NCBI GenBank assembly: GCA_944372355.1
Contig: CALVYS010000001.1
Coordinates: forward strand, 32,681 to 96,680
Source of the DNA: an uncultured Clostridia bacterium
GTDB lineage: Bacteria; Bacillota; Clostridia; Christensenellales; UBA1242
Reading direction: 5' to 3'
DNA: 64,000 nucleotides
Shown: piece by piece, positions 4,393 through 30,728 of the stretch
Numbering within the stretch: position 1 is the stretch's first letter
Layout: every line of letters begins with the position of its first letter
The notes under the pieces: generated by a model
What the model saw: the letters and a program-made list of their open reading frames with translations, nothing else
Database searches by the model: none
Told to the model about the DNA's origin: nothing
Position numbers and translations under genes: made by a program

Positions 4393-4410
4393 GAAAAAAA
4401 AGGTGGAAAC

Positions 4411-5526
4411 ATGGAAGAAAGCACAACACATCTTGCTCTTTACAGAAAATATAGGCCGCGCACTTTTGAAGAAGTCGTTGGGCAGGAGCACATAACCAAA
4501 ACACTTGCAAACCAAATTTTGGCAGGCAAACTTTCTCATGCCTATCTTTTTACTGGTTCGCGCGGAACTGGCAAAACCAGCGTTGCAAAAATTTTTGCAA
4601 GAGCGGTGAATTGTGAAAACAACACGACAGGCTCACCTTGTGGTGAATGTGAAACCTGCAAAAGATTGGCGGCTGAAAATGATATAAACATTATTGAAAT
4701 CGACGCGGCTTCCAACAACCGCGTGGACGACATTCGCGAGCTGCGTGAAAAAGTCAAATTTGCACCTATCGGCGCCAAGTATAAAGTTTACATCATCGAC
4801 GAAGTTCACATGCTTTCAGACAGTGCGTTTAATGCGCTTTTGAAAACTTTGGAAGAACCACCAAAATATGTCATCTTCATTTTGGCAACCACCGAAGTTC
4901 ACAAACTTCCTGCGACCATACTTTCAAGATGTTCACGATTTGATTTTAGGTTGCTTTCAATTGACAATCTGTCAAAAGTCTTGTCGTCTGTGTTTGAAAA
5001 AGAGGGCATAGATGCAGAGCCAGAGGCGATCAAACTCATCGCGGCAAGCGGAGAAGGAAGTGTGAGAGACACACTTTCCATAGCTGATTCAGTGAACGCA
5101 TATGCGAGAGGGCACATAACCAAAGAGGACGTTTTGCGCGTGCTTGGCACAACAGACCATGAACTTTTGATCAACTTTTTTGACAAAATCATAGATAAAG
5201 ATATCGGTGGTGTTTTGACTGAAATCAATCAGATCGATGCCAGCGGAAAAAATCTTGCAGTTTTTGCAAAAGACGCAGCAAAACATGCAAGAGACCTGCT
5301 TATTTGCAAAACCTGTCAGCAGCCAAATGAAATTTTAAATATGCCTGATGATGTGTTGGAAAAATATATGGCACAAGCGGACCGTGCCACTGACAAGCAG
5401 CTGATCATGTATATGCAAAATTTTGCATCGAGTGAAGCGGAGCTGAGATATGCTCTGTCAACCAGGTTGCTGCTGGAAAGCCTTGCAATCGCCTGCATCA
5501 ACGGAGAACTCGAAAAAAAAAATTGA
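4411..5526 (+). CDS. dnaX: DNA polymerase III gamma/tau subunit, domains I-III only in the genomic frame
   Basis: YRPRTFEEVVGQEH, GSRGTGKTS Walker A, a CGECETC zinc module and IIDEVHMLS. AAAGGTGG SD before the ATG at 4411. It ends two codons after an A10 run. Confidence 0.9.
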   Translation: MEESTTHLALYRKYRPRTFEEVVGQEHITKTLANQILAGKLSHAYLFTGSRGTGKTSVAKIFARAVNCENNTTGSPCGECETCKRLAAENDINIIEIDAASNNRVDDIRELREKVKFAPIGAKYKVYIIDEVHMLSDSAFNALLKTLEEPPKYVIFILATTEVHKLPATILSRCSRFDFRLLSIDNLSKVLSSVFEKEGIDAEPEAIKLIAASGEGSVRDTLSIADSVNAYARGHITKEDVLRVLGTTDHELLINFFDKIIDKDIGGVLTEINQIDASGKNLAVFAKDAAKHARDLLICKTCQQPNEILNMPDDVLEKYMAQADRATDKQLIMYMQNFASSEAELRYALSTRLLLESLAIACINGELEKKN

Positions 5527-5864
5527 TTAAGCCGCTCGCTTCGCGCTCTGCATCAAATGAGCGAGAGATTTGGGGCAAGGTGGTGTTGTTTTTGAAAGAA
5601 CACAAACATGTTGCGCTTCATGTGGCGTGCGGCGATATAACAGATGTGACAATCAAAGATGGAAATCTTGTCATATCCACCTTTGACAACACAGTGGCTT
5701 CGCTTTTGGAAGATGGCAAGCGTGAAATAGAGCGTGCTCTCAGCTGGCAAGGCTTGGAAATGGGCGTGACCATCGACAAAAAAGAGGAGCTTCCAAACAA
5801 AATGGAGCTTGACGAGGCCAAATTGAGCAAACTTTTTGGCAATAAATTAAAAGTCATTAAATAA
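5523..5864 (+). CDS. DnaX/tau C-terminal-domain-like ORF in the -1 frame relative to dnaX
   Basis: Only a TTG start and no obvious SD. The frame is open across the A10 run of dnaX. The product pattern IWGKVV..LKEHK...LVISTFDN...EIERALS resembles the C-terminal domain of full-length Firmicute DnaX (from memory, not searched). Confidence 0.55.
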   Translation: MIKPLASRSASNEREIWGKVVLFLKEHKHVALHVACGDITDVTIKDGNLVISTFDNTVASLLEDGKREIERALSWQGLEMGVTIDKKEELPNKMELDEAKLSKLFGNKLKVIK

Positions 5865-5877
5865 TGGAGGATTTAAT

Positions 5878-6198
5878 ATGGGATACGGTTTCGGTGGAGG
5901 CTTTGGCGGAGGAAATATGCAGCAACTCATGCGCCAAGCACAAAAAATTCAACAGCAAATGCAACAGGCAAGAGAGCAGCTTGATCAAGAAGAGTTTGTT
6001 GGCAGCTCTGGTGGCGGCATGGTTGAGGTTACGATGTTTGGAAACAAAACCTTGAAAAAGGTTGCTATAAATCCAAAAGTTGTCGATCCTGATGATGTTG
6101 AGATGCTGGAAGATTTGATCATTTCAGCGTTCAATGATGTTTTGGCAAAAATCGAAATCGCGGAAAAAGAGAGAATACCTCAAATTCCAGGAATGTAA
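5878..6198 (+). CDS. ybaB: nucleoid-associated protein YbaB/EbfC
   Basis: 106 aa, Gly-rich N-terminus then MQQLMRQAQKIQQQMQQAREQL. GGAGG SD. Conserved dnaX-ybaB-recR order. Confidence 0.9.
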   Translation: MGYGFGGGFGGGNMQQLMRQAQKIQQQMQQAREQLDQEEFVGSSGGGMVEVTMFGNKTLKKVAINPKVVDPDDVEMLEDLIISAFNDVLAKIEIAEKERIPQIPGM

Positions 6199-11834: not shown

Positions 11835-14800
11835 TTATTTAACCTTGATTCTCTTTCTGAGTTTCACAATGATTATGATTGCAACAATCACTGCCACACA
11901 GCCGATCACGATGGCCGCTATTGCCCAGCCGTTGAGAGGTTCGGTTTTTGTGACTTTGTAGCTGAACAACAAGTTGCCGCTCATTGATCTTGCAGTGATG
12001 AAGTAGGTTCCAGTTGCTTGGATTGAAAATTGTGTTGTGCCCATTGAAGAGATGGTCTCTTCGCTGATGTGGAACACAGTTCCAGCAACTGTGATCATGC
12101 ATTCGCCCACGGTTTGATAAATTCGCTCTGCGTTGAAGGTTACGGTGATTGGCGAGGAGCTTGATTGACCTTCCGTCAGAGAAATGTCGATTGGAACCGA
12201 TGCGGTGTTGATCCAGTAAGAGAAGGTGAGTTCGGTTGGAAGCGAGTAGTCACTGCGATTGAAGTTGCCGTTGGTTGCGATGGTGACGGTGTATCTTCCA
12301 CTTCCTGTTCCGATGTAAGAGGTCACAAGTTCTTTCAGATAGGTGACTCCGTCCACAACAACTGTTTGAAGTTGCAATCCAAGAGTTGGGTTTTCACTTG
12401 CCATATCATTTAAAATTGTTTGAGTGATGTCGCCAAGATTGTCTTTGACAACCGATTTGATGTAGTAATTTTGATATGGGGCGAATTCATATGAATAGCG
12501 CGACTCATTTGGATTGACGATTGTGAAGTTGTAGGTCTGTTGACGAACGTCAACTCCTGTCACGCTGGTGCCCACAAACCAAACGGTGTAGTAGCCAGGA
12601 TCGGAGAAGGTGAAGGTGTGAGTGTTTGCATCGTAGTTGAAGCTTGTGATATCTTGGCCGTTGCGTTGTGCACGAATCATTCCAAGTCCGCTTCCGCTGG
12701 ATTGAGCGGTGTAATATTCGTTCATGTTGAGAATGGTAAGTTGCACATCGCCATTGAACACACCTTTGTTGATCGGGTCGGTTGTCACTTGCTCGCCAGT
12801 GGCTGCATCTGCGAAAGTCATCGAAAATGCGACATCTTTCAAGAACACAAACCTTTGTGAGGTTGATGCGGAAGAGGTTCCGTATGCAAACACCTGAACA
12901 TTTCCTGCTGTGTCGACAAATGAAAGTGTGTAAGTTCCGCTCCTGTCTAATGTGACATAATTGTAATTGCTGTCAGTTCGATAGGTGACAGGGAATTCAA
13001 CTCCGTCTTTTAACACATGCAAATCAATAATGTTGGTGCTGATTCCATAGGTTTTTGACCAGCGGATTGTCACCGAATCAAAGTTTGATGTGGAGGAAAT
13101 GATTGCGTTGATCGTGCTTGAAGAAAGCATGTTGAAGGTTTCGTTTGTGTTGTAATAGTAGCTTGCTTCTGCAACGATTTCCGATGTTGGAGGAATGTAG
13201 GTTATGAACACTATCCTGTAAAATGGTGAGATTCCGGAACCAGTTGGAGGGACATATCCGCCAACCGAGTCTTGCGTGTAGTTTGTAACCAGGAAGGAGC
13301 GTGTCACAACTCCATTTCCCTCAGAGATAGGAGTGAAGATGTCATCAACCACAACGATGTTTTGATAGTCGTTTGGAACGATGCTTACAGAAGCTTGATC
13401 TGTGTAATAGTTGACGTTTGTGATGTAATAATCAGAATATTCAGTGCCTTCGTAGGTGTAGTAATTTTGTGCTTTGTCAACTACCACGCCGTTGTTGGTG
13501 ACTCTGTAAAATTCACTTGAAGATTCAAGAATTTCCACTCTGTAAAGGTCATATTCATTTGCCAGCACTCGCTCACCACTTTCATTTGCTGCATAACGAA
13601 CCAAGAAATAGTAAACGCCGCTTTCGTCAAATCTGGTGCCTGATGAGAATGCTTCAAAATCTTGCATAGAGCCTTCTTTATAGTAAAGCACTTCATATGG
13701 ATATGCAAAGTTTGTTGGGTCTGGCTCGTATGAAACGGTGACATTGAGTGCGAAGGTTTGACCTGAAAGTGTAACGCGATAGCGCGTGCCATTCAAAGTG
13801 AGATAACGCACGCTTGAATCGGTGAGGGTTTCCTCTGTGATGTTTGTGCCATAATGGTCGCTGAATCTTATAGTTGAAAGAGCGTTTGTCATCTCTCCCA
13901 CTGCGAGCTCTGGTTTGACCTCATATAGGTGCAGATAAAGCTCTTTCACAAACAGATTTTCATCGATCTGGCCTGGGTTTTCATCATCGACTTCATAAAC
14001 TCTGATTCGGAAGCGTTGATCAATTTGAGGTTGATTTGTTCCTCTTGCAAAGGTCATGGAGATGATGTCTGTGCCGCTTGTGGTGTAGTCTTGATTTTGC
14101 GTAGCGGTAATCCAAGTTCCATCTAAGAATTTTTCAACCACAGGAATGTAGATGTTGCGGTTGTAGGTGTAGACGAGGTTGGTTGGATTGATGTAGCTTG
14201 TCACATATTCTCCACCAGTTATTGCAGGGTCAGAGATGATGTCTTGATATATTTGAGTGCCAGAAGTGGTTGAAACTTCTTCAAACGAGCTTTGGCCGAA
14301 GATGTGCACCAAAGTTGTGACATTTCCAAAGTTGTCCACGATTCTGTATCTGATCTTGTCTCCAACATTAGGGAGGTTTATGTAACTAAATCTCAGAGTG
14401 CGTGTCACAGATTCATAGGTGAATTCGATATAGTTGTTGCTTGTCCAAGCTGTTGTATAGTTGTAAGCGGAGTTTTGCAAGTTTTCCAGCGAGTTTGGAT
14501 CATTTTGCAAACTGTATCTTTGGCTGTTGTCGCCAGAGGTTATCTCAACAGAAACAGGGTAGGCGGTGTTTGAGGTTCCAACTGTCAAGTATTCAGCCTC
14601 AGAACTTGAAGAGTGGTTTGCATTCAAACTAACGCCATTGATCAAGTATAGTGCGATCTGCAAATGACTTCCATTTGTTCGGTTGGAAAGTGTCAGGGTG
14701 ATTTGGCTTTCGCTTGAAGCGTAGCCACTGAACAGCGAAGAGATTTGAACGTATTCACCAGTTGCCATGTTGATGACGCGGCCCTCTTCCCATGGACTGA

Positions 14801-17800
14801 ACATATAAGTGGAAGATGAGTTGTTTCGAGAAATGGTCAGCGTCAACCATTCGTCTCCAAACAGGTTGAGATTTTGCAAATTGAAATTTGTTGAGGAGTA
14901 AGCTGCAACAACTTTTTCAGTTTGAGTTTGTGCCAAAATTTGTGCGTCACTGATGCGTTTTTCCTCGTTGTCATCGGTGAATTGCAAGCCTTGATATTGA
15001 GTTGTGCTTCCTGAATTAGGATCAGTTACAACAAAGCCGTTGCCATCATCCGTGCCGTAAACATAGACAAGATAAATCGTCAAGTTTCCGGCCAAGTCTT
15101 GTTCCACAATTTCATAGTAAGTTCGTTGTGTGTAAGTGCTTGCATCGGTTGAGAGAGGAGTGAAGTTTGATGAAGCAAAAGACGATGGGTCGGTTTCAGC
15201 ATAGCTTCCCGAATAAGGATCGCTAACTGCGCGGTAGTAAGCGTTGACGGTTGAGCCTGAGTAGTTTCCGGCTGAATTTGAGTTTTCCTGAGCTTGTGAT
15301 GCAAGTGAGGCAAGGAAAGCACCGTCAACAAGATAGGAATAATATTGGAATGTCCCTGTTGATGCCGAGATGTTGTAAGCTGCCTCTGCTGGGGTGGTCA
15401 CATTTGTGCCATCAATGTTTTGATAGGTTCTGAGTGAAGTGCCATTTAATTGATAGGTTCCATTCGAGAAGTTGGAAACGTTTGCAATCAAGCTTGAAAT
15501 CATTTCATTGCTTGCGGTTTTGTCAACGACAACTGTTTTCAAAGCTTTTGAGTAGTAATTGTCGTTGTGGCCAACGAACTGCATCGTCACACTCACACGA
15601 ACGCCATTCTCATAAAGGCCTGCTTGCTCCAAATTTAAAGTCAGATTGTTCAAGTTGTTGGTTGTGGAAAATTGAAGTGCGCTTGCGATGCGTTCACTAT
15701 TCACATCGCTCGATCCGTCGAGATAGCTTACAGAAATGCCGTCTGAAACATCAACAATCATATCATCATAGTCACGGCTGAACGAAAGCTGAATTTGTGT
15801 TTTGTCGATGTCTGCAATATATCTGTCGTTTGCATCTTGCCAAGAAGCTGTGAAGTTTTTTTGATTTGTGTAGTAGTTTGTTGCATCTAAGGTGCTTAAA
15901 GAACTTCCATTTGATGCCAACGAAAATTCAGGTGATGCCGACTGAATTGTGAAAGCAAACATATAGTTTTTGGTGAAAACGTTGTCGGTTCCTGCGCCGC
16001 TAGCGTTTGCTGCTTGCGTGATCAAAACATAATATGTGCCGGCTTCTGTGAGCTCGTTGAGAGAGGAGCCATCAGAACTTACAAAGGTTAAAAATCCATT
16101 TTCAGATCCAGATGAGGAGTAGGTGCGTGTGGCGCCTGTTTCGCTTGAAACAAAACGGATTTGAGCTGTCAGCTGATAGCTGGTTATCGACGAAGCTGAA
16201 ATTGCGTTTTGGTCATAATATGAAAGCAGCGGATTGTTGTTTGAAGAATATTCCACTTCATTTGTGTTTCCAACCGACGATTCCGAGTTGTTGATTGTGT
16301 ATTTATACGAAGGGATATAAACTTTCACTGGAAGTTTGTTGGTTTCAAAAATCACTGTTGGAGGATTGTCAAAACTCCAATTGTCGTTAGGATCGGTATA
16401 GAAGCTTTCACCAGAGTTTATGTGGTTTTCACGATGAGGGAAGGTGACTGACAACACTGCACTTTCATCATCGATGCCGTCATACATGTTTACGAAGATG
16501 TCGCCGCCCACGATGCTTTCAAGCGTTGGACCAAGACGAAGACTTTCCAAAGTTGAAGAGTCGATCACATCAGGCGTGGTGTTTGTCTCAAAGCTGTTAG
16601 TTCCGTTGGAAATTGCAAGTTTGCCAAATCTGAATCCACCTTCCAGCAAAATATATCTCAAATCGTTGTTGGTCCAGGTTGAAATATATTCGACAGGAGT
16701 TTCCAAATTGCCTGCATCATAAGCAGTGAAAGTCAAATTGACACCTGACAATGGATAGCTTGGGTCAGTTGAAGAGACCACGATCAAATTCTCGTAAACA
16801 ATTGCTGTGTAAGCTGGTGCGTTTGTGGTTGAATCGACAAGTGTGTAAACGTCAGGATCGTAACTCACGGTTTCTTGTTCTGTGATCACGCCATATCTGT
16901 CAACATACATGGTCAACGTGCGCTCGTTATAGTCGAAAACATCAACGGTGTAGTTGTCGCCTGACATATAGGTTCTGTAAATCACATATTTGCCTTCGCG
17001 AGTTGCATTGCCTGAGAGGTTGATCGCTTCGGTGATTGCTTCGGTGCTGCTGTTGGTTCCATCGAAGGAATAAATTGGGATAGTTGTTGAAGGGGTCTGA
17101 GAAATTGTTCGATAGTATGAAAGCATGAATTGGTCAGATCCCACAGCTTGTGAAGCGACTATTTGAGTTTGGTATGGGAAAAATTCAATGTAAACTTCCT
17201 GCACTTGTGTGCTTTGACCGTTGTCATAGTTTACTGTTGGGACAAAGGAAATGTAAAGGGTGGTGTCAAGTGCGGTTGGTGTGTAGTAGCTGTTTTTAAA
17301 TGTGCTTCCACCATCTGCATCAACACCTGAGGTCGAATAAGCAGCAGTAAACAATGTGGTGTTTGCTTCGTTTGAATCATTATGTGAGTCACGATAAACG
17401 ACTCTGGTCAGCGAAGTGTCTCCGGTTACAGTTATGTATTGGCTGTTTGACGGATAGGTGGTCAATCTGTCAAGAGCGGAAAGATTTGCTCCTTGCGTGT
17501 TGGATTCGTCGCGAAGCATGAATCCATATTCACCTTCCATGTCGACAAAGGTTTGTTGCTCTGCGTCATATGTCACGCCGTCAACAACGATTGAAAGCGT
17601 GCCGCTCTCGCTCAGCCTTCCTGTTCGAGAAGGGTCTGACAGCGAGGTCAAAGTGGTTGCGCCGCTCACGCCGTAGAAGAACTCTCTGCTTCCGTCGCTG
17701 TAAACGATGCGATAAAGGTCGGCTGTTTGCAGTTGCTCGGTGATGGTTGTGACATCCAGCATCGCACCTGTCAAAAGGTTGGTGTAAAGGTTGTCGGTGG

Positions 17801-20621
17801 TTGTTGAAGCATAAAAGCTGGAATCAGAAGCCAGATAATGAACAGAGAATGAAAATTGAATGCTCATGCTGTTTACAGCGTCAGTGGTGGAGTAGACGTC
17901 TGCGGTTCGATCTTTAAAGGCAATTGTGTCATCGATTTCGCAAAGATAGTAGCAGCCGCTTCTTCCATAAGATGCGTTCAAATTGATTTGCTGAACATCA
18001 CCTTGTGAAATAAAACTTTGCATAATTTCCAAAAGTGAGTTGCGTCCATCATTTGCTGTGTCATCTTCTTCGTCGCCATTGACATTTGTAATGAAATCGC
18101 CTGTTGTTAGTGTTTCCAATGACGCGCCCTCTGCCAGGCTGATCCTGATCCCTTTGTAGTCACCCCAATAGATAGTTGCGTCGGAGGTGAGGGTGTGATT
18201 GGAGCTGGTCAGAACGTCATAGCCATTTGAAGTGCTTATTGCAAAGTAAGGAGAGGAGTCATCTAAGAACACGAATGCGGCATTGCTGTTTCCAGCCTCG
18301 TCGAAAACTTGGAAGATGTAAAGTCCTGCGCTCTCTTTCAAATAGTTTGCTGGGATTGATGTGCTTGGGTGAGCGCCTGCATTGTCGTAAGTTTGCCACT
18401 CAGGATTTACTGACAAGTCCAGCATTCTGTCAGCGCCAAGGAAGGAGGAGGAATAACTTAAAGTTGATGAAATCAAACCTCCCAAAGCCGTGACATTGTA
18501 ATAATCATATGTGTTTAGTGGATAGTAACGCACAAAGCCACGAGTTGTAGCGCCACTGGCTTTTTGGTTTTGCCAGGTGAAGACGAATGCCTCGTTGGTT
18601 GCCGAACCCAATTGGTTTACAAGGGTCAAGTTGCTTGACGAGGTGGAAGTTGTCACAGAATAGGCTTGCAAGTTTTGAATTGGCGTGGTGTCGATTGTGA
18701 AAGTTCGTGTGATTGGAGTCTCTTGCATGGCGTTTTTGCCGTAGTAAATGCGAAGAGTGTAGGCTCCGTCTTCTTCGATGGTTGTCTCAGTTTCTCCATT
18801 GTTGAAAAGATAGCGTTCTGCTCCCACTGAGCCGGTGTTGAAGTCGCGCCTTGTCAGAGTCACATAAACAGGCGAGTTGAACGCGTTGTCTTCGTTTGAG
18901 AATGCGATCGTCACATCTTGATTGGTGTATTGGCCGGAATAAAGGGTCGTGCCGCCTGTTTCAACAGTCACCTCAGGTGTGGTCTTTGAAATTTCAAAAT
19001 AGAAATATTGATAGAAAGGTGTGGTAGTTTCAAGAATGCCTGATGAATTTGTGTAGTTTGAAAAGTTGTAGCTTAGACGTATCAAGTAAACTCCATCATC
19101 ACTCAAATTTCTTGTTGCTGAAATAGCCTCTCCGCTGTCCCAGGTGTCGCCTGTTTTAGTAAAAAGCGTTGCAGAAACGTTGTTTGCATAAGTTGAAAGT
19201 CTGACTGGCGTTTGGTTGGTTTTGACAGGGTCATTAGAAGTCAGATAATCGTTCAATGCGTCGTCTGTTTCAGGGGCCCATTCGCCTAACGAGGTTCCCA
19301 AAGCCTTTGTGATGTCGGCGGCAGCAGAGATTTCCACTCTGTTTTCAGCAGAGGAGATGGATTTGAATTCTGCAAAATCGTTGAGTTCATAGTCCGTGTA
19401 GAAAATCTGCGCACCGTAAATATAAAATTTTTGATCCAAAACAGTGTGAGAAAGTTCATAAACGTCTGAACCGATGGTGTAGATGAGTTCGATGTCGATG
19501 TTGTAAAGGCCAAGGTCGTTGAAATAGATTTTTATTTCGTCGTCCATCACATCATCGGTGTTTTGATCAAGATAAACTGCACTGTTGACAAAACTTGGCA
19601 CATTGAAGGTGTTTTCGGTTGGGTCAAAAGTGATGGTTTGCGTTGCAGAAGAGTTGTTCAAAGATTTTGTGATTGTCAATCTGTAAAGGCGAGGGTTGTA
19701 AGTTATGTAAGGCAGCTCGTTTGTTGCACTTGAACCCTTTTGTGAAGCATTGTAAAAGTAGTTCCATCTGTGGTTTGAGGATTCGCTTTGTGTCTGCTCG
19801 GTGTTGTTCACATTATAGCCAAAGTTTGGAGATGTGAGGTCGGAACCGTTGAAATAGGTTGCGGTTTCGAGCATGAAGATGCTGTAATCAAAAGTTTGGC
19901 CGGTTATGATGGAGTAAGTTTCCACAGCTTCGGCTGCGCCTGTTGAAGTGCTGGCAGGCGTCAATGTGACATCGTAAAGATCATATGTCACAACAACGCG
20001 GAATAAGCCCTCTTCATGCAAAGTGAGTTTGGCATGGCCGTCGTTTCCAGAGGCTGTAATGGTTGATTCTTCCGACGTAGTGTCTAATTCCACTTGAAAA
20101 TCCAAAGTTTCAGGGAAAAAGTTTGCATCAAAGATGGAAGGCACGTTTGATGCTTTGAGCAAAGCATTGACATCACTTGTTTCTGAAAGCACAAGTTCTT
20201 GCCCGTTCAAATAGAGGTTGACAGATCCGATGTTCAAATAGTAATAGTGCAGAGGGTTGATGGGCTGGCCACCATTGTCCATTCCGTCAGGATAATAGCG
20301 ATAGATGCAAGCATCGACAGTTGAATCGTTTTCATCACCAGTTTGAACCTGATCGTCTTGACTATCTCCATCTCCATCTCTGTCGGCTTGTTCAATAAAA
20401 TCAAACCTGATCGTGGCGTTTTGAGCCTGGGTGTTGAAATATATCTCCGAGCTGTGACCGCCATTATCAAAAAACACAGGAAGCTGGTTTGTGATCTCAG
20501 CTTCATTGATGGCTGCGTGCACTTCGGTTTTGCTCGTGCAAAGCATTGCTCCTGTTGTTGCCAGGCAAAATGCTGCAAGGCCGAAAACAGCGAATTTGAA
20601 AATTTGTTTAACTCTGCTCAT
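11835..20621 (-). CDS. giant (2928 aa) signal-peptide-bearing, C-terminally TM-anchored surface protein made of many divergent beta/Ig-like modules
   Basis: Single uninterrupted ORF. N-terminal signal peptide (MSRVKQIFKFAVFGLAAFCLATTGAMLCTSKTEVHA) and C-terminal TM plus basic tail (WAIAAIVIGCVAVIVAIIIIVKLRKRIKVK), with no LPXTG. T/S/N/Y/D-rich, with recurring G-x-Y-x-hydrophobic strands and D-x-AGN motifs (FQVFDEAGNSN, FVDTAGNVQVF, EQDLAGNLTIY, VDNFGNVTT). Confidence 0.85.
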   Translation of the reverse strand: MSRVKQIFKFAVFGLAAFCLATTGAMLCTSKTEVHAAINEAEITNQLPVFFDNGGHSSEIYFNTQAQNATIRFDFIEQADRDGDGDSQDDQVQTGDENDSTVDACIYRYYPDGMDNGGQPINPLHYYYLNIGSVNLYLNGQELVLSETSDVNALLKASNVPSIFDANFFPETLDFQVELDTTSEESTITASGNDGHAKLTLHEEGLFRVVVTYDLYDVTLTPASTSTGAAEAVETYSIITGQTFDYSIFMLETATYFNGSDLTSPNFGYNVNNTEQTQSESSNHRWNYFYNASQKGSSATNELPYITYNPRLYRLTITKSLNNSSATQTITFDPTENTFNVPSFVNSAVYLDQNTDDVMDDEIKIYFNDLGLYNIDIELIYTIGSDVYELSHTVLDQKFYIYGAQIFYTDYELNDFAEFKSISSAENRVEISAAADITKALGTSLGEWAPETDDALNDYLTSNDPVKTNQTPVRLSTYANNVSATLFTKTGDTWDSGEAISATRNLSDDGVYLIRLSYNFSNYTNSSGILETTTPFYQYFYFEISKTTPEVTVETGGTTLYSGQYTNQDVTIAFSNEDNAFNSPVYVTLTRRDFNTGSVGAERYLFNNGETETTIEEDGAYTLRIYYGKNAMQETPITRTFTIDTTPIQNLQAYSVTTSTSSSNLTLVNQLGSATNEAFVFTWQNQKASGATTRGFVRYYPLNTYDYYNVTALGGLISSTLSYSSSFLGADRMLDLSVNPEWQTYDNAGAHPSTSIPANYLKESAGLYIFQVFDEAGNSNAAFVFLDDSSPYFAISTSNGYDVLTSSNHTLTSDATIYWGDYKGIRISLAEGASLETLTTGDFITNVNGDEEDDTANDGRNSLLEIMQSFISQGDVQQINLNASYGRSGCYYLCEIDDTIAFKDRTADVYSTTDAVNSMSIQFSFSVHYLASDSSFYASTTTDNLYTNLLTGAMLDVTTITEQLQTADLYRIVYSDGSREFFYGVSGATTLTSLSDPSRTGRLSESGTLSIVVDGVTYDAEQQTFVDMEGEYGFMLRDESNTQGANLSALDRLTTYPSNSQYITVTGDTSLTRVVYRDSHNDSNEANTTLFTAAYSTSGVDADGGSTFKNSYYTPTALDTTLYISFVPTVNYDNGQSTQVQEVYIEFFPYQTQIVASQAVGSDQFMLSYYRTISQTPSTTIPIYSFDGTNSSTEAITEAINLSGNATREGKYVIYRTYMSGDNYTVDVFDYNERTLTMYVDRYGVITEQETVSYDPDVYTLVDSTTNAPAYTAIVYENLIVVSSTDPSYPLSGVNLTFTAYDAGNLETPVEYISTWTNNDLRYILLEGGFRFGKLAISNGTNSFETNTTPDVIDSSTLESLRLGPTLESIVGGDIFVNMYDGIDDESAVLSVTFPHRENHINSGESFYTDPNDNWSFDNPPTVIFETNKLPVKVYIPSYKYTINNSESSVGNTNEVEYSSNNNPLLSYYDQNAISASSITSYQLTAQIRFVSSETGATRTYSSSGSENGFLTFVSSDGSSLNELTEAGTYYVLITQAANASGAGTDNVFTKNYMFAFTIQSASPEFSLASNGSSLSTLDATNYYTNQKNFTASWQDANDRYIADIDKTQIQLSFSRDYDDMIVDVSDGISVSYLDGSSDVNSERIASALQFSTTNNLNNLTLNLEQAGLYENGVRVSVTMQFVGHNDNYYSKALKTVVVDKTASNEMISSLIANVSNFSNGTYQLNGTSLRTYQNIDGTNVTTPAEAAYNISASTGTFQYYSYLVDGAFLASLASQAQENSNSAGNYSGSTVNAYYRAVSDPYSGSYAETDPSSFASSNFTPLSTDASTYTQRTYYEIVEQDLAGNLTIYLVYVYGTDDGNGFVVTDPNSGSTTQYQGLQFTDDNEEKRISDAQILAQTQTEKVVAAYSSTNFNLQNLNLFGDEWLTLTISRNNSSSTYMFSPWEEGRVINMATGEYVQISSLFSGYASSESQITLTLSNRTNGSHLQIALYLINGVSLNANHSSSSEAEYLTVGTSNTAYPVSVEITSGDNSQRYSLQNDPNSLENLQNSAYNYTTAWTSNNYIEFTYESVTRTLRFSYINLPNVGDKIRYRIVDNFGNVTTLVHIFGQSSFEEVSTTSGTQIYQDIISDPAITGGEYVTSYINPTNLVYTYNRNIYIPVVEKFLDGTWITATQNQDYTTSGTDIISMTFARGTNQPQIDQRFRIRVYEVDDENPGQIDENLFVKELYLHLYEVKPELAVGEMTNALSTIRFSDHYGTNITEETLTDSSVRYLTLNGTRYRVTLSGQTFALNVTVSYEPDPTNFAYPYEVLYYKEGSMQDFEAFSSGTRFDESGVYYFLVRYAANESGERVLANEYDLYRVEILESSSEFYRVTNNGVVVDKAQNYYTYEGTEYSDYYITNVNYYTDQASVSIVPNDYQNIVVVDDIFTPISEGNGVVTRSFLVTNYTQDSVGGYVPPTGSGISPFYRIVFITYIPPTSEIVAEASYYYNTNETFNMLSSSTINAIISSTSNFDSVTIRWSKTYGISTNIIDLHVLKDGVEFPVTYRTDSNYNYVTLDRSGTYTLSFVDTAGNVQVFAYGTSSASTSQRFVFLKDVAFSMTFADAATGEQVTTDPINKGVFNGDVQLTILNMNEYYTAQSSGSGLGMIRAQRNGQDITSFNYDANTHTFTFSDPGYYTVWFVGTSVTGVDVRQQTYNFTIVNPNESRYSYEFAPYQNYYIKSVVKDNLGDITQTILNDMASENPTLGLQLQTVVVDGVTYLKELVTSYIGTGSGRYTVTIATNGNFNRSDYSLPTELTFSYWINTASVPIDISLTEGQSSSSPITVTFNAERIYQTVGECMITVAGTVFHISEETISSMGTTQFSIQATGTYFITARSMSGNLLFSYKVTKTEPLNGWAIAAIVIGCVAVIVAIIIIVKLRKRIKVK

Positions 20622-28887: not shown

Positions 28888-28900
28888 AAATTAACAAAAA

Positions 28901-28926
28901 AATGCACAAAAAAGTGCATTTTTTTG
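28901..28926 (+). terminator. intrinsic terminator after the helicase gene
   Basis: AATGCAC-AAAAAA-GTGCATT plus a T-run. Confidence 0.7.
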
Positions 28927-28997
28927 TTGTTTAATTGCAATTATTAAAACCATTGCGTTTAATTTATTTTTTTCATTTTCAAAAGCGATAAAATGGC

Positions 28998-29026
28998 TTG
29001 CACTTTTGGCCTTCTTGTGCTAGAAT
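28998..29026 (+). promoter_or_regulatory. promoter of tRNA-Ser
   Basis: TTGCAC, 17-nt spacer, TGC-TAGAAT extended -10. The tRNA starts about 15 nt downstream. Confidence 0.65.
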
Positions 29027-29041
29027 TAAAACAGCTTTTTT

Positions 29042-29134
29042 GGAGACGTATCGAAGTGGTCGCAACGAGCTTGACTCGAAATCAAGTTGTCGGTTAAATC
29101 CGGCACGTGGGTTCGAATCCCACCGTCTCCGCCA
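29042..29134 (+). tRNA. tRNA-Ser (anticodon CGA), CCA encoded
   Basis: Hand-folded. Acceptor GGAGACG/CGTCTCC, anticodon arm CTTGA-CTCGAAA-TCAAG, long variable arm, T arm GTGGG-TTCGAAT-CCCAC. Confidence 0.9.
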
Positions 29135-29481
29135 AAAATTGTCGTTTGAACTCAAACGGCAATTTTTTTAGTTTACGCAAGGACGCTTCGTCCTTATTCT
29201 CATCGTCTGAGATTTCTGTTTTGTTGGATTTAGAAGACCCATATTATGTTGCAAATGAACTTCAAAAAAATAGTGTGTGACATTAAAAATATTTCCTTTA
29301 ATAAGAAGTGGACAGAAGGCTAACAAGAGAGACAAAGAAACTTTAACGAAATTAAAAAGCTAAAATGGTCAAAATCCGTGACACATTTTTATACAAGCGG
29401 TTTATTACAGCCGTTTTTTTGATGAAAACATAAGGGGAAGGGAGGGGAAAGAGAGATTTTTGCGTGGACGGAGATTTGCTT

Positions 29482-29625
29482 ATGTTTAATATCCTATCAA
29501 AACTAGCTGCGGGCTGGAGCAGTTACACGTGGACGGGCAATTATACCTGGCTAAACGATTTGTTTTCTGTCCTTGAACAATTATGGCTGTCGCTGGATCA
29601 ATGCCTAATAATTATAAAAAAATAA
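29482..29625 (+). pseudogene. truncated, diverged paralog (47 codons) of the 29714-30067 membrane-protein gene, including its leader
   Basis: MFNILSKLAAGWSSYTWTGNYTWLNDLFSVL... aligns with MMNLISMLAGWKDISWPKQYTWLPQLFTVL... The upstream leader (AAAACATAAGGG...GATTTTTGCG.GGACGGAG) is also shared, in inverted orientation. Confidence 0.45.
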
Positions 29626-29713
29626 CCATAAACGGTTATCTTCTTTGTTATTTTATTGTTTAATAGGGAAAATTTGTGCGCAAAAAAGCGACCATTGTAG
29701 GTCGCTTCCTATT

Positions 29714-30067
29714 TTATTGAGCGGGTGAAGGTGAAATTACTTGTCCTGGACTTGTTGGTGTGCCGATAAATGCTTGCAATATCAAAGGAAGAAGTTCATT
29801 GAAGAAAACAACAAGTAAAATCGTAACTGCAACTGCAATGATTGTTGTAATCAATCTCTTCTTTGCTTCGTCACGCTTGGATTGGTCCTCTGCACGGGCG
29901 AGATTGATGCCAAGCACAATGGCATAAACTGCACCTGCTGCGCCAACAACAGCCATTATTGCATACAACAATGGATAAAGCACAGTAAACAATTGTGGAA
30001 GCCAAGTATATTGTTTAGGCCATGAAATATCTTTCCAACCAGCCAACATCGAGATCAAATTCATCAT
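29714..30067 (-). CDS. small two-TM membrane protein, topology reminiscent of VirB2/TrbC-type conjugative pilins
   Basis: 117 aa with two hydrophobic helices separated by a charged loop (ARAEDQSKRDEAKKR). GGAGG SD and a terminator at 29682-29706. The family call is tentative. Confidence 0.55.
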   Translation of the reverse strand: MMNLISMLAGWKDISWPKQYTWLPQLFTVLYPLLYAIMAVVGAAGAVYAIVLGINLARAEDQSKRDEAKKRLITTIIAVAVTILLVVFFNELLPLILQAFIGTPTSPGQVISPSPAQ

Positions 30068-30398
30068 AAGAAAACCTCCGTCCGCGCAAAAAAATCGTTC
30101 CTACCCCCTCTCTCCCTTATGTTTTAAGGAAGGAGCGGAGATGACTTTAAAGCGCTAATTAATTTTAATATTTGTAAAAAAGATTTTTCTATACCGAAAT
30201 CTTTTTACATGACAATCTTAGCATAAAAAATTTTTAATACCAAATGATTTTACATAATTTTCAAAAAAAAATAAAAAAATTTTTTTTCTAATTTTTTAAT
30301 AAAAAAGGCCCTTAAATTTAAGGGCATGAAAAATCAAGAAAAAAAATTGTTTGAAAAAAGTGGATTTTACAATTTTAATTGCAATTTTTCTATATTTT

Positions 30399-30578
30399 TT
30401 AAAATAATCTTCCGCTGCATTGGGCAGGGCAGGTGTTTGCACAGCCCCAAAAATTGTTTCCATTCGAAAGCGCCAAAAGCAGCAGCAACAGAAAGTTGGT
30501 GTTTGTGTTTAAATTTGTGTCAGTGGCGTTTGCAAAAATAGACAACAAAAGAACCAGCAAAATGTCTTGTGAATTCAT
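30399..30578 (-). CDS. small (59 aa) hydrophobic Cys-containing peptide, divergent from the ArsR gene
   Basis: AAAGGAGGA SD 4 nt before the ATG. Product is MNSQDILLVLLLSIFANATDTNLNTNTNFLLLLLLALSNGNNFWGCANTCPAQCSGRLF. GCCCTTAAATTTAAGGGC terminator plus T-run downstream. One codon under the ORF-track cutoff. Confidence 0.45.
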   Translation of the reverse strand: MNSQDILLVLLLSIFANATDTNLNTNTNFLLLLLLALSNGNNFWGCANTCPAQCSGRLF

Positions 30579-30728
30579 AAAATCCTCCTTTCAACATTTT
30601 TTAATCTTAAAGTGCAAAAAAAGTCAAAATCCTGTTTTGCCAAGTTTCTTTTGTAAAGGATAATAATTGTTGTTACGGTTGTTATATATGAAAAAGCTTG
30701 CTTGTTTGACACAATTTAAGGAGAGTTT

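Follow-up and report, generated by a model that had tools for sequence, protein, structure and literature searches.

A conserved poly-A tract separates gamma from tau in the dnaX gene of uncultured gut Clostridia and marks a probable programmed recoding site

The stretch of DNA analysed here is a 64-kb window of contig CALVYS010000001.1, from an uncultured Clostridia bacterium, and the subject of this report is its dnaX gene, which is split between two reading frames at a run of ten adenines. All positions are those of the window, and the dnaX features lie on its plus strand. The gene is preceded by a Shine-Dalgarno (SD) sequence, GGTGG at 4402-4406, found by inspection of the sequence 4 nt ahead of the ATG at 4411. 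Read in its own frame (frame 0), dnaX extends over 4411-5526 and encodes a gamma-like product of 371 aa, which comprises domains I-III and has the C-terminus ...NGELEKKN, the last codons being AAC GGA GAA CTC GAA AAA AAA AAT TGA. The A10 tract (5513-5522) is the longest homopolymer of the window and holds two frame-0 heptamers, namely A_AAA_AAA at 5514-5520 and A_AAA_AAT at 5517-5523. The frame-0 stop that terminates gamma, TGA at 5524-5526, abuts the tract, and a stop in the +1 frame, TAA at 5528-5530, follows two codons past it. From 5436 onwards the -1 frame has no stop until a TAA at 5862-5864, beyond the tract. In this frame, positions 5520-5570 contain the last lysine codon of the tract and a linker of 16 codons (K-LIKPLASRSASNEREI), joining gamma to a C-terminal domain, and positions 5571-5864 encode that domain, the conserved C-terminal domain of tau (WGKVVLFLKEH..ALHVACGDITDV..WQGL..), up to and including the TAA. 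An open reading frame (ORF) finder reports this part as a separate ORF of 113 aa in the -1 frame, running from a TTG at 5523, which overlaps the TGA stop (TTGA), to the same TAA; no SD-like motif is found ahead of the TTG.

This arrangement had been noticed earlier, from the letters of the DNA and a list of its ORFs only (hereafter, the sequence-only reading). In particular, it had been claimed that dnaX ends in ...GELEKKN after A10, that the next ORF (5523-5864) is in the -1 frame with only a TTG and no SD, and that the run is crossed by an open -1 frame, and all three statements agree with what we find. It had further been predicted that one additional A, or a -1 shift, would give a tau of about 495 aa with the junction ...ELEKKKLIKPLASR. 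The junction is correct, and the length is not: either event at the tract yields a conceptual tau of 484 aa, with the junction ...GELEKKKLIKPLASR....

The assignment of the frame-0 product is straightforward. It matches the NCBIfam model NF004046 with 507.9 bits (cutoff 400) over profile positions 2-360 of 567 and the model TIGR02397, dnaX_nterm, with 447 bits (cutoff 250), and Pfam places on it DNA_pol3_delta2 (PF13177), DNAX_ATPase_lid (PF22608) and DNA_pol3_gamma3 (PF12169), i.e. the AAA+ module, the lid and domain III. The second ORF is harder to place. Since Pfam, NCBIfam and PDB sequence searches with the 113-aa ORF alone gave no significant match, its homology was shown by means of a profile of the family of such ORFs (C-ORFs), which was searched against 1.84 billion representatives. 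Most of the matches are again short ORFs, and the profile also matches the extreme C-terminus of two contiguous DnaX proteins, P0245 (507 aa; residues 403-506, whole-library E 3.1e-5) and P0260 (552 aa; residues 450-551, E 2.3e-4), both of which carry DnaX domains I-III according to Pfam. The earlier suggestion that the second ORF is the DnaX C-terminal domain is thus supported by these two proteins. What is more, the conceptual 484-aa product obtained with one additional A aligns with the full-length model NF011523 from end to end, its residues 9-482 falling on positions 3-472 of 474. By homology, then, the -1 ORF is the C-terminal domain of tau.

The family of C-domains has 17 invariant columns, and an AlphaFold (AF2) model of the domain, with a pLDDT of 80, shows a small alpha/beta fold. 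The solved structures that superpose best on this model are those of DnaA domain I (4tps_D, with a TM-score of 0.78 on the target and an rmsd of 2.3; 2e0g) and DciA (8a3v_C), all with E-values above 0.001; E. coli tau itself, in 5fku_E, matches weakly, also at E above 0.001. DnaA domain I and the N-terminal domain of DciA belong to the KH-like fold group, as does tau domain V. In this sense, and with E-values as weak as these, the modelled fold is consistent with tau domain V. The C-terminal domain of tau tethers the replicative polymerase in other bacteria, and the C-domain described here would presumably bind PolC or DnaE.

How general is the split? A scan in which each GTDB species was represented by one genome gave 80 loci, which come from many independent assemblies and belong without exception to metagenome-assembled genomes of uncultured gut Clostridia or Eubacteriales. 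The N- and C-parts were placed on these loci by tblastn, and 79 loci hold both. In 78 of the 79 other species-level loci, dnaX ends directly after an A9 or A10 run and the C-domain follows in an open -1 frame. The sequence-only reading had proposed to look among relatives for an unsplit dnaX lacking the run, and the comparison gave the opposite, namely the same split, the same run and the same frame relation. Its claim that the polarity is reversed, with recoding needed for tau, is supported by the same relatives, even though this polarity had already been described elsewhere (PMC3711429). There are two types of tract, which share the register AAA AAA AAY stop. In 72 species the sequence is xxA AAA AAA AAC TGA/TAA (A9-C-TRA), and in the window and its six closest relatives it is xAA AAA AAA AAT TGA/TAA (A10-T-TRA). 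Searches with the separate parts give the same picture: among the closest 120 homologues of the N-part, 117 are gamma-sized (366-393 aa), and the search with the 113-aa ORF returned 221 homologues with 45-97% identity, the best 120 of which are all stand-alone ORFs of 80-125 aa.

Simply by count, one or two runs of at least nine A's are expected by chance in 64 kb at 39% GC. The significance of the present one goes beyond chance because the run and the stop are invariant in 79 sequences while their flanks diverge. Namely, when the sequences are aligned on the tract, nine A's, the T of the stop and its last A are the same in 79 of 79 (2 bits per position), and the flanks mostly carry less than 1 bit per position; the stop, TGA or TAA, stands at an identical position in every sequence (TAA in 26 of 79, mostly as CTAA). 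The codon ahead of AAA-AAA-AAC is GTA, GCA, ACA or TCA, so that the amino acid varies, and yet the first A of the A9 tract, which is the four-fold degenerate third base of that codon, is A in 72 of 72 species, with a naive p = 1e-57 calculated from the codon usage of each gene. A synonymous site held in this way argues for selection on the nucleotides, in other words on the length of the tract.

Among the loci are one from Candidatus Caccovivens (L025) and one from isolate UBA11517 (L010). In GTDB, Candidatus Caccovivens is the genus UBA11517, placed within the Christensenellales in family UBA1242 (PMC8035907), and the clade with the split dnaX is apparently this family. More divergent lineages (L081:717-733/P0219, P0167, P0177, P0178, P0227 and about fifteen other representatives) keep A10-C-TAA, with ...KKKLI... 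read across the site, and between tract and C-domain they have a highly acidic, low-complexity linker of 90-130 residues, which may be the counterpart of tau domain IV. The position of the frameshift, its direction and its motif are thus conserved across genera, as seen from the invariant tract and stop and from KKKLI in the distant lineages. Because the distant split versions retain the A10-C-TAA site, the trait is of old origin and broadly distributed in this region of the clostridial tree. The split is probably a conserved programmed recoding site in dnaX.

The -1 frame behaves as coding sequence from the tract onwards. In every one of the 79 loci it continues for 110-119 codons without a stop. 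Its information content is 1.05, 1.35 and 0.47 at the first, second and third codon position, respectively, and a median dN/dS of 0.32 (0.08-0.24 in close pairs) indicates purifying selection. On the other side stand the signals for separate translation: no ATG, GTG or TTG lies between the tract and the conserved tryptophan in 36 of 79 loci, and an SD-like motif is present in the linker in 2 of 79 only. The linker measures 14-19 codons and exactly 16 in 55 of the 79. Taken together, purifying selection, an open frame, a linker of fixed length and the absence of any conserved start codon or SD argue that the C-domain is expressed solely in fused form. For want of such a start codon or SD, we rejected separate initiation of the C-ORF as an explanation.

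Standard decoding of the gene would give the 371-aa gamma-like clamp-loader subunit, terminating at the stop that abuts the tract, and the 484-aa tau would come only from those expression events that enter the -1 frame at the tract. We consider it probable that they do so by slippage of RNA polymerase, with the addition of one A and with gamma as the default product. The RNA-DNA hybrid in transcription is about nine base pairs long. A tract of A9 or A10 comes close to this length, such that the nascent oligo-A could realign on the oligo-dT template and gain one A. Transcripts with the additional A, translated in the normal manner, would be read as ...ELEKKK-LIKPLASR... on to the tau stop, and those that lose one A or gain two would run into the nearby +1-frame stop and give gamma-sized products too. 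The tract would, in this way, set the ratio of gamma to tau. That the slippage is transcriptional rather than ribosomal, as well as its efficiency, we infer from sequence features. In particular, none of the nine A's varies, whereas seven would suffice for a ribosomal heptamer, and a stop in the +1 frame occurs within 8 codons in 95% of the species against a background of 39%. The enrichment of such stops supports transcriptional slippage, since stops in that frame matter only if indels of several sizes arise. Furthermore, RNAalifold finds no conserved RNA structure (0 base pairs from -30 to +75 in 40 loci), the downstream folds are ordinary when compared with shuffled sequences (mean z -0.48 over 79 loci and +1.19 for the window), and Rfam reports neither a dnaX frameshifting element nor another relevant family, be it at gathering thresholds over the whole window or at E up to 10 over 5400-5700. 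Transcriptional slippage is favoured because no conserved RNA structure follows the run and because +1-frame stops are so frequent.

That said, several observations weigh against this preference. The most serious competitor is programmed -1 ribosomal frameshifting, acting alone or together with transcriptional slippage, either in tandem on A_AAA_AAA or on A_AAA_AAY, and perhaps aided by a slowly decoded stop on the 3' side, and we regard it as possible, if clearly the less likely of the two. In each of the 79 sequences the two heptamers are correctly phased with frame 0, and the second one lies next to a stop that is invariant. A distant relative (L084, 692-709) keeps the split with an interrupted run, AAC A7 C TAA, whose frame 0 reads CAA-AAA-AAC-TAA, so that it retains A_AAA_AAC-TAA with seven A's. 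Seven A's are few for slippage of the polymerase and more in keeping with ribosomal frameshifting, on which this lineage may rely. In about 60 of the 79 loci, what is more, the motif GGnGA occupies -20 to -16, at a spacing of 6-11 nt upstream, where it coincides with Gly-Glu/Asp codons and could act as an internal SD-like stimulator. There is also precedent, in that E. coli dnaX uses a -1 shift and the two-ORF dnaX of Chlorobium phaeobacteroides, with A7, has been suggested to do likewise (PMC5009743). However, no conserved hairpin or pseudoknot lies downstream, and A_AAA_AAA and A_AAA_AAC are far weaker than A_AAA_AAG in E. coli (PMC5009743). Moreover, a single heptamer does not explain nine invariant A's, one of them at a four-fold degenerate site, and an enrichment of +1-frame stops would serve nothing if the shift were purely in the -1 direction. 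The two mechanisms also differ in the peptide that they predict at the junction: a ribosomal slip on A_AAA_AAU would keep the asparagine and give KKNLIKPLASRSASNE, whereas transcriptional (or tandem) slippage is expected to give KKKLIKPLASRSASNE. Two further points bear on the preference for polymerase slippage. About 10% of the contigs in two species clusters carry an in-frame tract, and part of tau could therefore come from DNA-level length variants. Also, a second, contiguous dnaX may exist elsewhere in the genome, beyond the visible 64 kb; within the window there is no second copy.

The remaining explanations do without recoding, and we find them much harder to accept. If the length of the tract varied at the DNA level, in a manner reminiscent of phase variation, tau would be made only in the subpopulation with one more A, and the out-of-frame form would be the majority genotype. 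In-frame variants do occur within a species (A11 in L086 versus A10 in L004), on 3 of 29 and 4 of 36 contigs in two clusters at 90% identity, and, in one case (L061), among species of the A9 type. On the other hand, they may be homopolymer errors or RNA-derived assemblies, and a neutral switch would not fix one state so uniformly over some 80 species. Tau is the subunit that tethers the polymerase, and cells with gamma only are expected to be non-viable, as is established for E. coli, yet the out-of-frame form is the consensus in 78 of 79 species and on about 90% of contigs, which makes a switch of this kind improbable. We give slightly less credence still to a true gene fission, in which a gamma-only DnaX and a separately translated C-domain, produced by re-initiation or coupling at TTGA/CTGA, would assemble non-covalently. 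The TTG of the window does overlap the stop, and gene callers annotate the C-ORF separately. However, a usable start codon is missing between tract and domain in the 36 loci mentioned above and an SD-like motif in all but two; the TAA stops are mostly CTAA, in which the overlapping CTA is unable to initiate; and fission leaves unexplained both an invariant A9 with a constrained synonymous site and a -1 frame that is open and conserved in length right from the tract. Least credible of all is that nothing but a one-base under-call of a homopolymer, or a decaying pseudogene, is being observed. Homopolymers are indeed error-prone, and one additional A is present in a few assemblies from related strains. 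An under-call was also the main alternative offered by the sequence-only reading, and it is effectively excluded, given that 78 of 79 relatives from independent metagenome assemblies share the out-of-frame tract, in two types (A9-C and A10-T) and one register, and that nearly all of the closest N-part homologues are gamma-sized. In addition, the C-ORF is under purifying selection, no broken gene was found at any other A/T run of at least 7 in the window, where intact ORFs contain several A8 and T8 runs.

The same alternative had been backed by the claim that two other genes of the window are broken at A/T runs, which we could not reproduce, with the proviso that not every flagged pair of ORFs was checked against Pfam. 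Namely, all A/T runs of at least 7 in the window were listed, and ten flanking ORFs, representing a subset of the flagged pairs, were submitted to Pfam; these ten are all distinct, complete genes, and there is no sign among them of a regime of homopolymer errors. The pairs checked, at 34-64 kb of the window, are hexapeptide transferase / UDP-glucose dehydrogenase, ABC-F / methyltransferase, and radical SAM / aminotransferase / GT2 / PIG-L / GT1.

Would our conclusions be different if the tract were not of the same length in all strains? Three of the 120 clusters of N-part homologues (P0271, P0325 and P0338) are in frame and encode the predicted fusion. One locus among the A9 species has A10-CTGA (L061:2491-2504), is in frame and encodes exactly the predicted junction. 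Two further loci, L086:1786-1800 (A11; P0271) and L004 (A10), belong to the same species and are 97.5% identical over 3141 nt, the single gap being that very base. In the two clusters at 90% identity, 26 and 32 contigs, respectively, have the gamma-sized form, compared with 3 and 4 that have the fused one. Such in-frame variants may reflect genuine polymorphism, errors in homopolymers or assemblies derived from RNA. Since the out-of-frame form is the consensus in essentially every species, the evidence argues that it is the selected state. A more elaborate scheme, to which we assign a rather low probability, would have the tract act at two levels, with polymerase slippage setting the basal ratio of gamma to tau and genomic changes between A9 and A10, or A10 and A11, flipping the polarity between strains of one species. 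If this were true, it would amount to a heritable and reversible switch of the replisome, gamma-rich versus tau-rich, in gut populations, and to the first Firmicute lineage with gamma as the default product of dnaX.

The closest known parallel is the two-ORF dnaX described by Antonov et al. (2013, NAR 41:6514, PMC3711429), in which recoding makes tau and which was found in 17 genes, from 12 genera, whose second part is shifted to the -1 frame in the DNA itself, an account that is repeated in the review by Atkins et al. (2016, PMC5009743). Nine of these genes, in Chlorobi, Bacteroidetes and Verrucomicrobia, have A10, and transcriptional realignment was proposed for them by analogy with Thermus (PMC3711429). 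In both cases the ORF for domains I-III stops just after a poly-A tract (mostly A10 there, within a range of A7-A10, and A9/A10 here), the C-terminal part of tau lies in the -1 frame, and the site is missed by standard annotation (by RefSeq there; here, those C-ORFs that have a source name are called 'hypothetical protein'). The differences are as follows. The taxa named by Antonov et al., i.e. Chlorobium, Pelodictyon, Prosthecochloris, Chloroherpeton, Flavobacterium, Cytophaga, Capnocytophaga and Coraliomargarita (PMC3711429), include no Firmicute among those with poly-A, whereas the present case is in Bacillota/Clostridia; the tract is followed here by a pyrimidine and an immediate stop, and in the published sites by a G with the stop a few bases further on; tau is very short here, with 484 aa and a linker of 16 codons; and the clade is much larger, with about 80 species plus more distant lineages. 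In the literature that we searched, we found no case of such a dnaX site from a Firmicute or from Clostridia. Consequently, what we describe is a further lineage of an already known type of recoding, and the reversed polarity itself is not new.

The dnaX of Thermus thermophilus also has an A9 tract, which undergoes transcriptional slippage according to Larsen et al. (2000) and Yurieva et al. (1997), as cited in PMC5009743 and PMC3290774. It shares with the present gene the position of A9 at the end of domain III, nearby stops in alternative frames and two products from one gene, and it differs in polarity: in Thermus the genomic frame encodes tau and slippage leads to gamma, and here the genomic frame encodes gamma and slippage would lead to tau. 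The Thermus type of polarity is also seen among the relatives, in a locus from a JGI metagenome (L085:625-641) with GTC A10 TAACTGA, where tau is in frame 0 and the overlapping TAA and TGA close both alternative frames, an arrangement that speaks in favour of transcriptional slippage; the rare L061 and L086 are in frame as well. With the -1 frameshift of E. coli dnaX, the present site has in common the gene, the domain boundary, the gamma/tau pair, a slippery tract of lysine codons and a stop at the site. However, the E. coli signal consists of A_AAA_AAG with an upstream SD and a downstream stem-loop, whereas here there are only A_AAA_AAA and A_AAA_AAY and no heptamer with AAG, no conserved stem-loop and no Rfam match; the polarity is reversed, and the tract is longer than a heptamer and conserved in its length. 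The internal SD of E. coli dnaX lies about 10 nt upstream, and the element in the corresponding place here is the GGnGA discussed above, at conserved Gly-Glu/Asp codons and with a spacing of 6-9 nt. Finally, frameshifts in poly(A) tracts are rescued by transcriptional slippage in the endosymbionts Buchnera and Blochmannia (PMC5009743), which likewise have out-of-frame genes with long A-tracts and full-length products that depend on the infidelity of the polymerase. In those organisms, though, the lesions are scattered, lineage-specific and found in degenerating genomes, while here one site is kept in register over about 80 species and both products are presumably functional.

As for the surroundings of the gene, ybaB/ebfC (5878-6198, plus strand) is a conserved downstream neighbour, mentioned for context only; YbaB_DNA_bd is likewise found 3' of the split dnaX in related contigs, with recR after ybaB wherever the contig extends that far. 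Elsewhere in the window, a single open reading frame of 2928 codons occupies 11835-20621 on the minus strand, and about 1.8 kb at 28890-30700 have no long ORF on either strand and are A/T-rich, with A9 at 30263-30271, T8 at 30280-30287 and A8 at 30339-30346. A tRNA-Ser(CGA) at 29042-29134 adjoins this ORF-poor stretch and is the only thing that Rfam finds there.

What does the split mean for these organisms? The few C-ORF homologues that have a name are called 'hypothetical protein', the named homologues of the N-part are called 'DNA polymerase III subunit gamma/tau' at the size of gamma, and a frameshift is mentioned in none of these names. The annotation of the clade thus seems to be systematically incomplete, its genomes appearing to be without a polymerase-tethering subunit, and recognising the site corrects the annotation and provides a simple search pattern. 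According to reviews, full-length DnaX is the sole dnaX product in the Firmicute models B. subtilis, S. aureus and S. pyogenes (PMC13220808, PMC3290774). Whether gamma has a role independent of tau has long been debated, and a large clade of Clostridia in which gamma would be the default product, with tau dependent on slippage, is relevant to that question. In addition, a one-base change of polarity at the same domain boundary has become fixed here in yet another lineage, apparently independently, and this supports the view that slippage and frameshifting are interchangeable means of setting the ratio of the two subunits.

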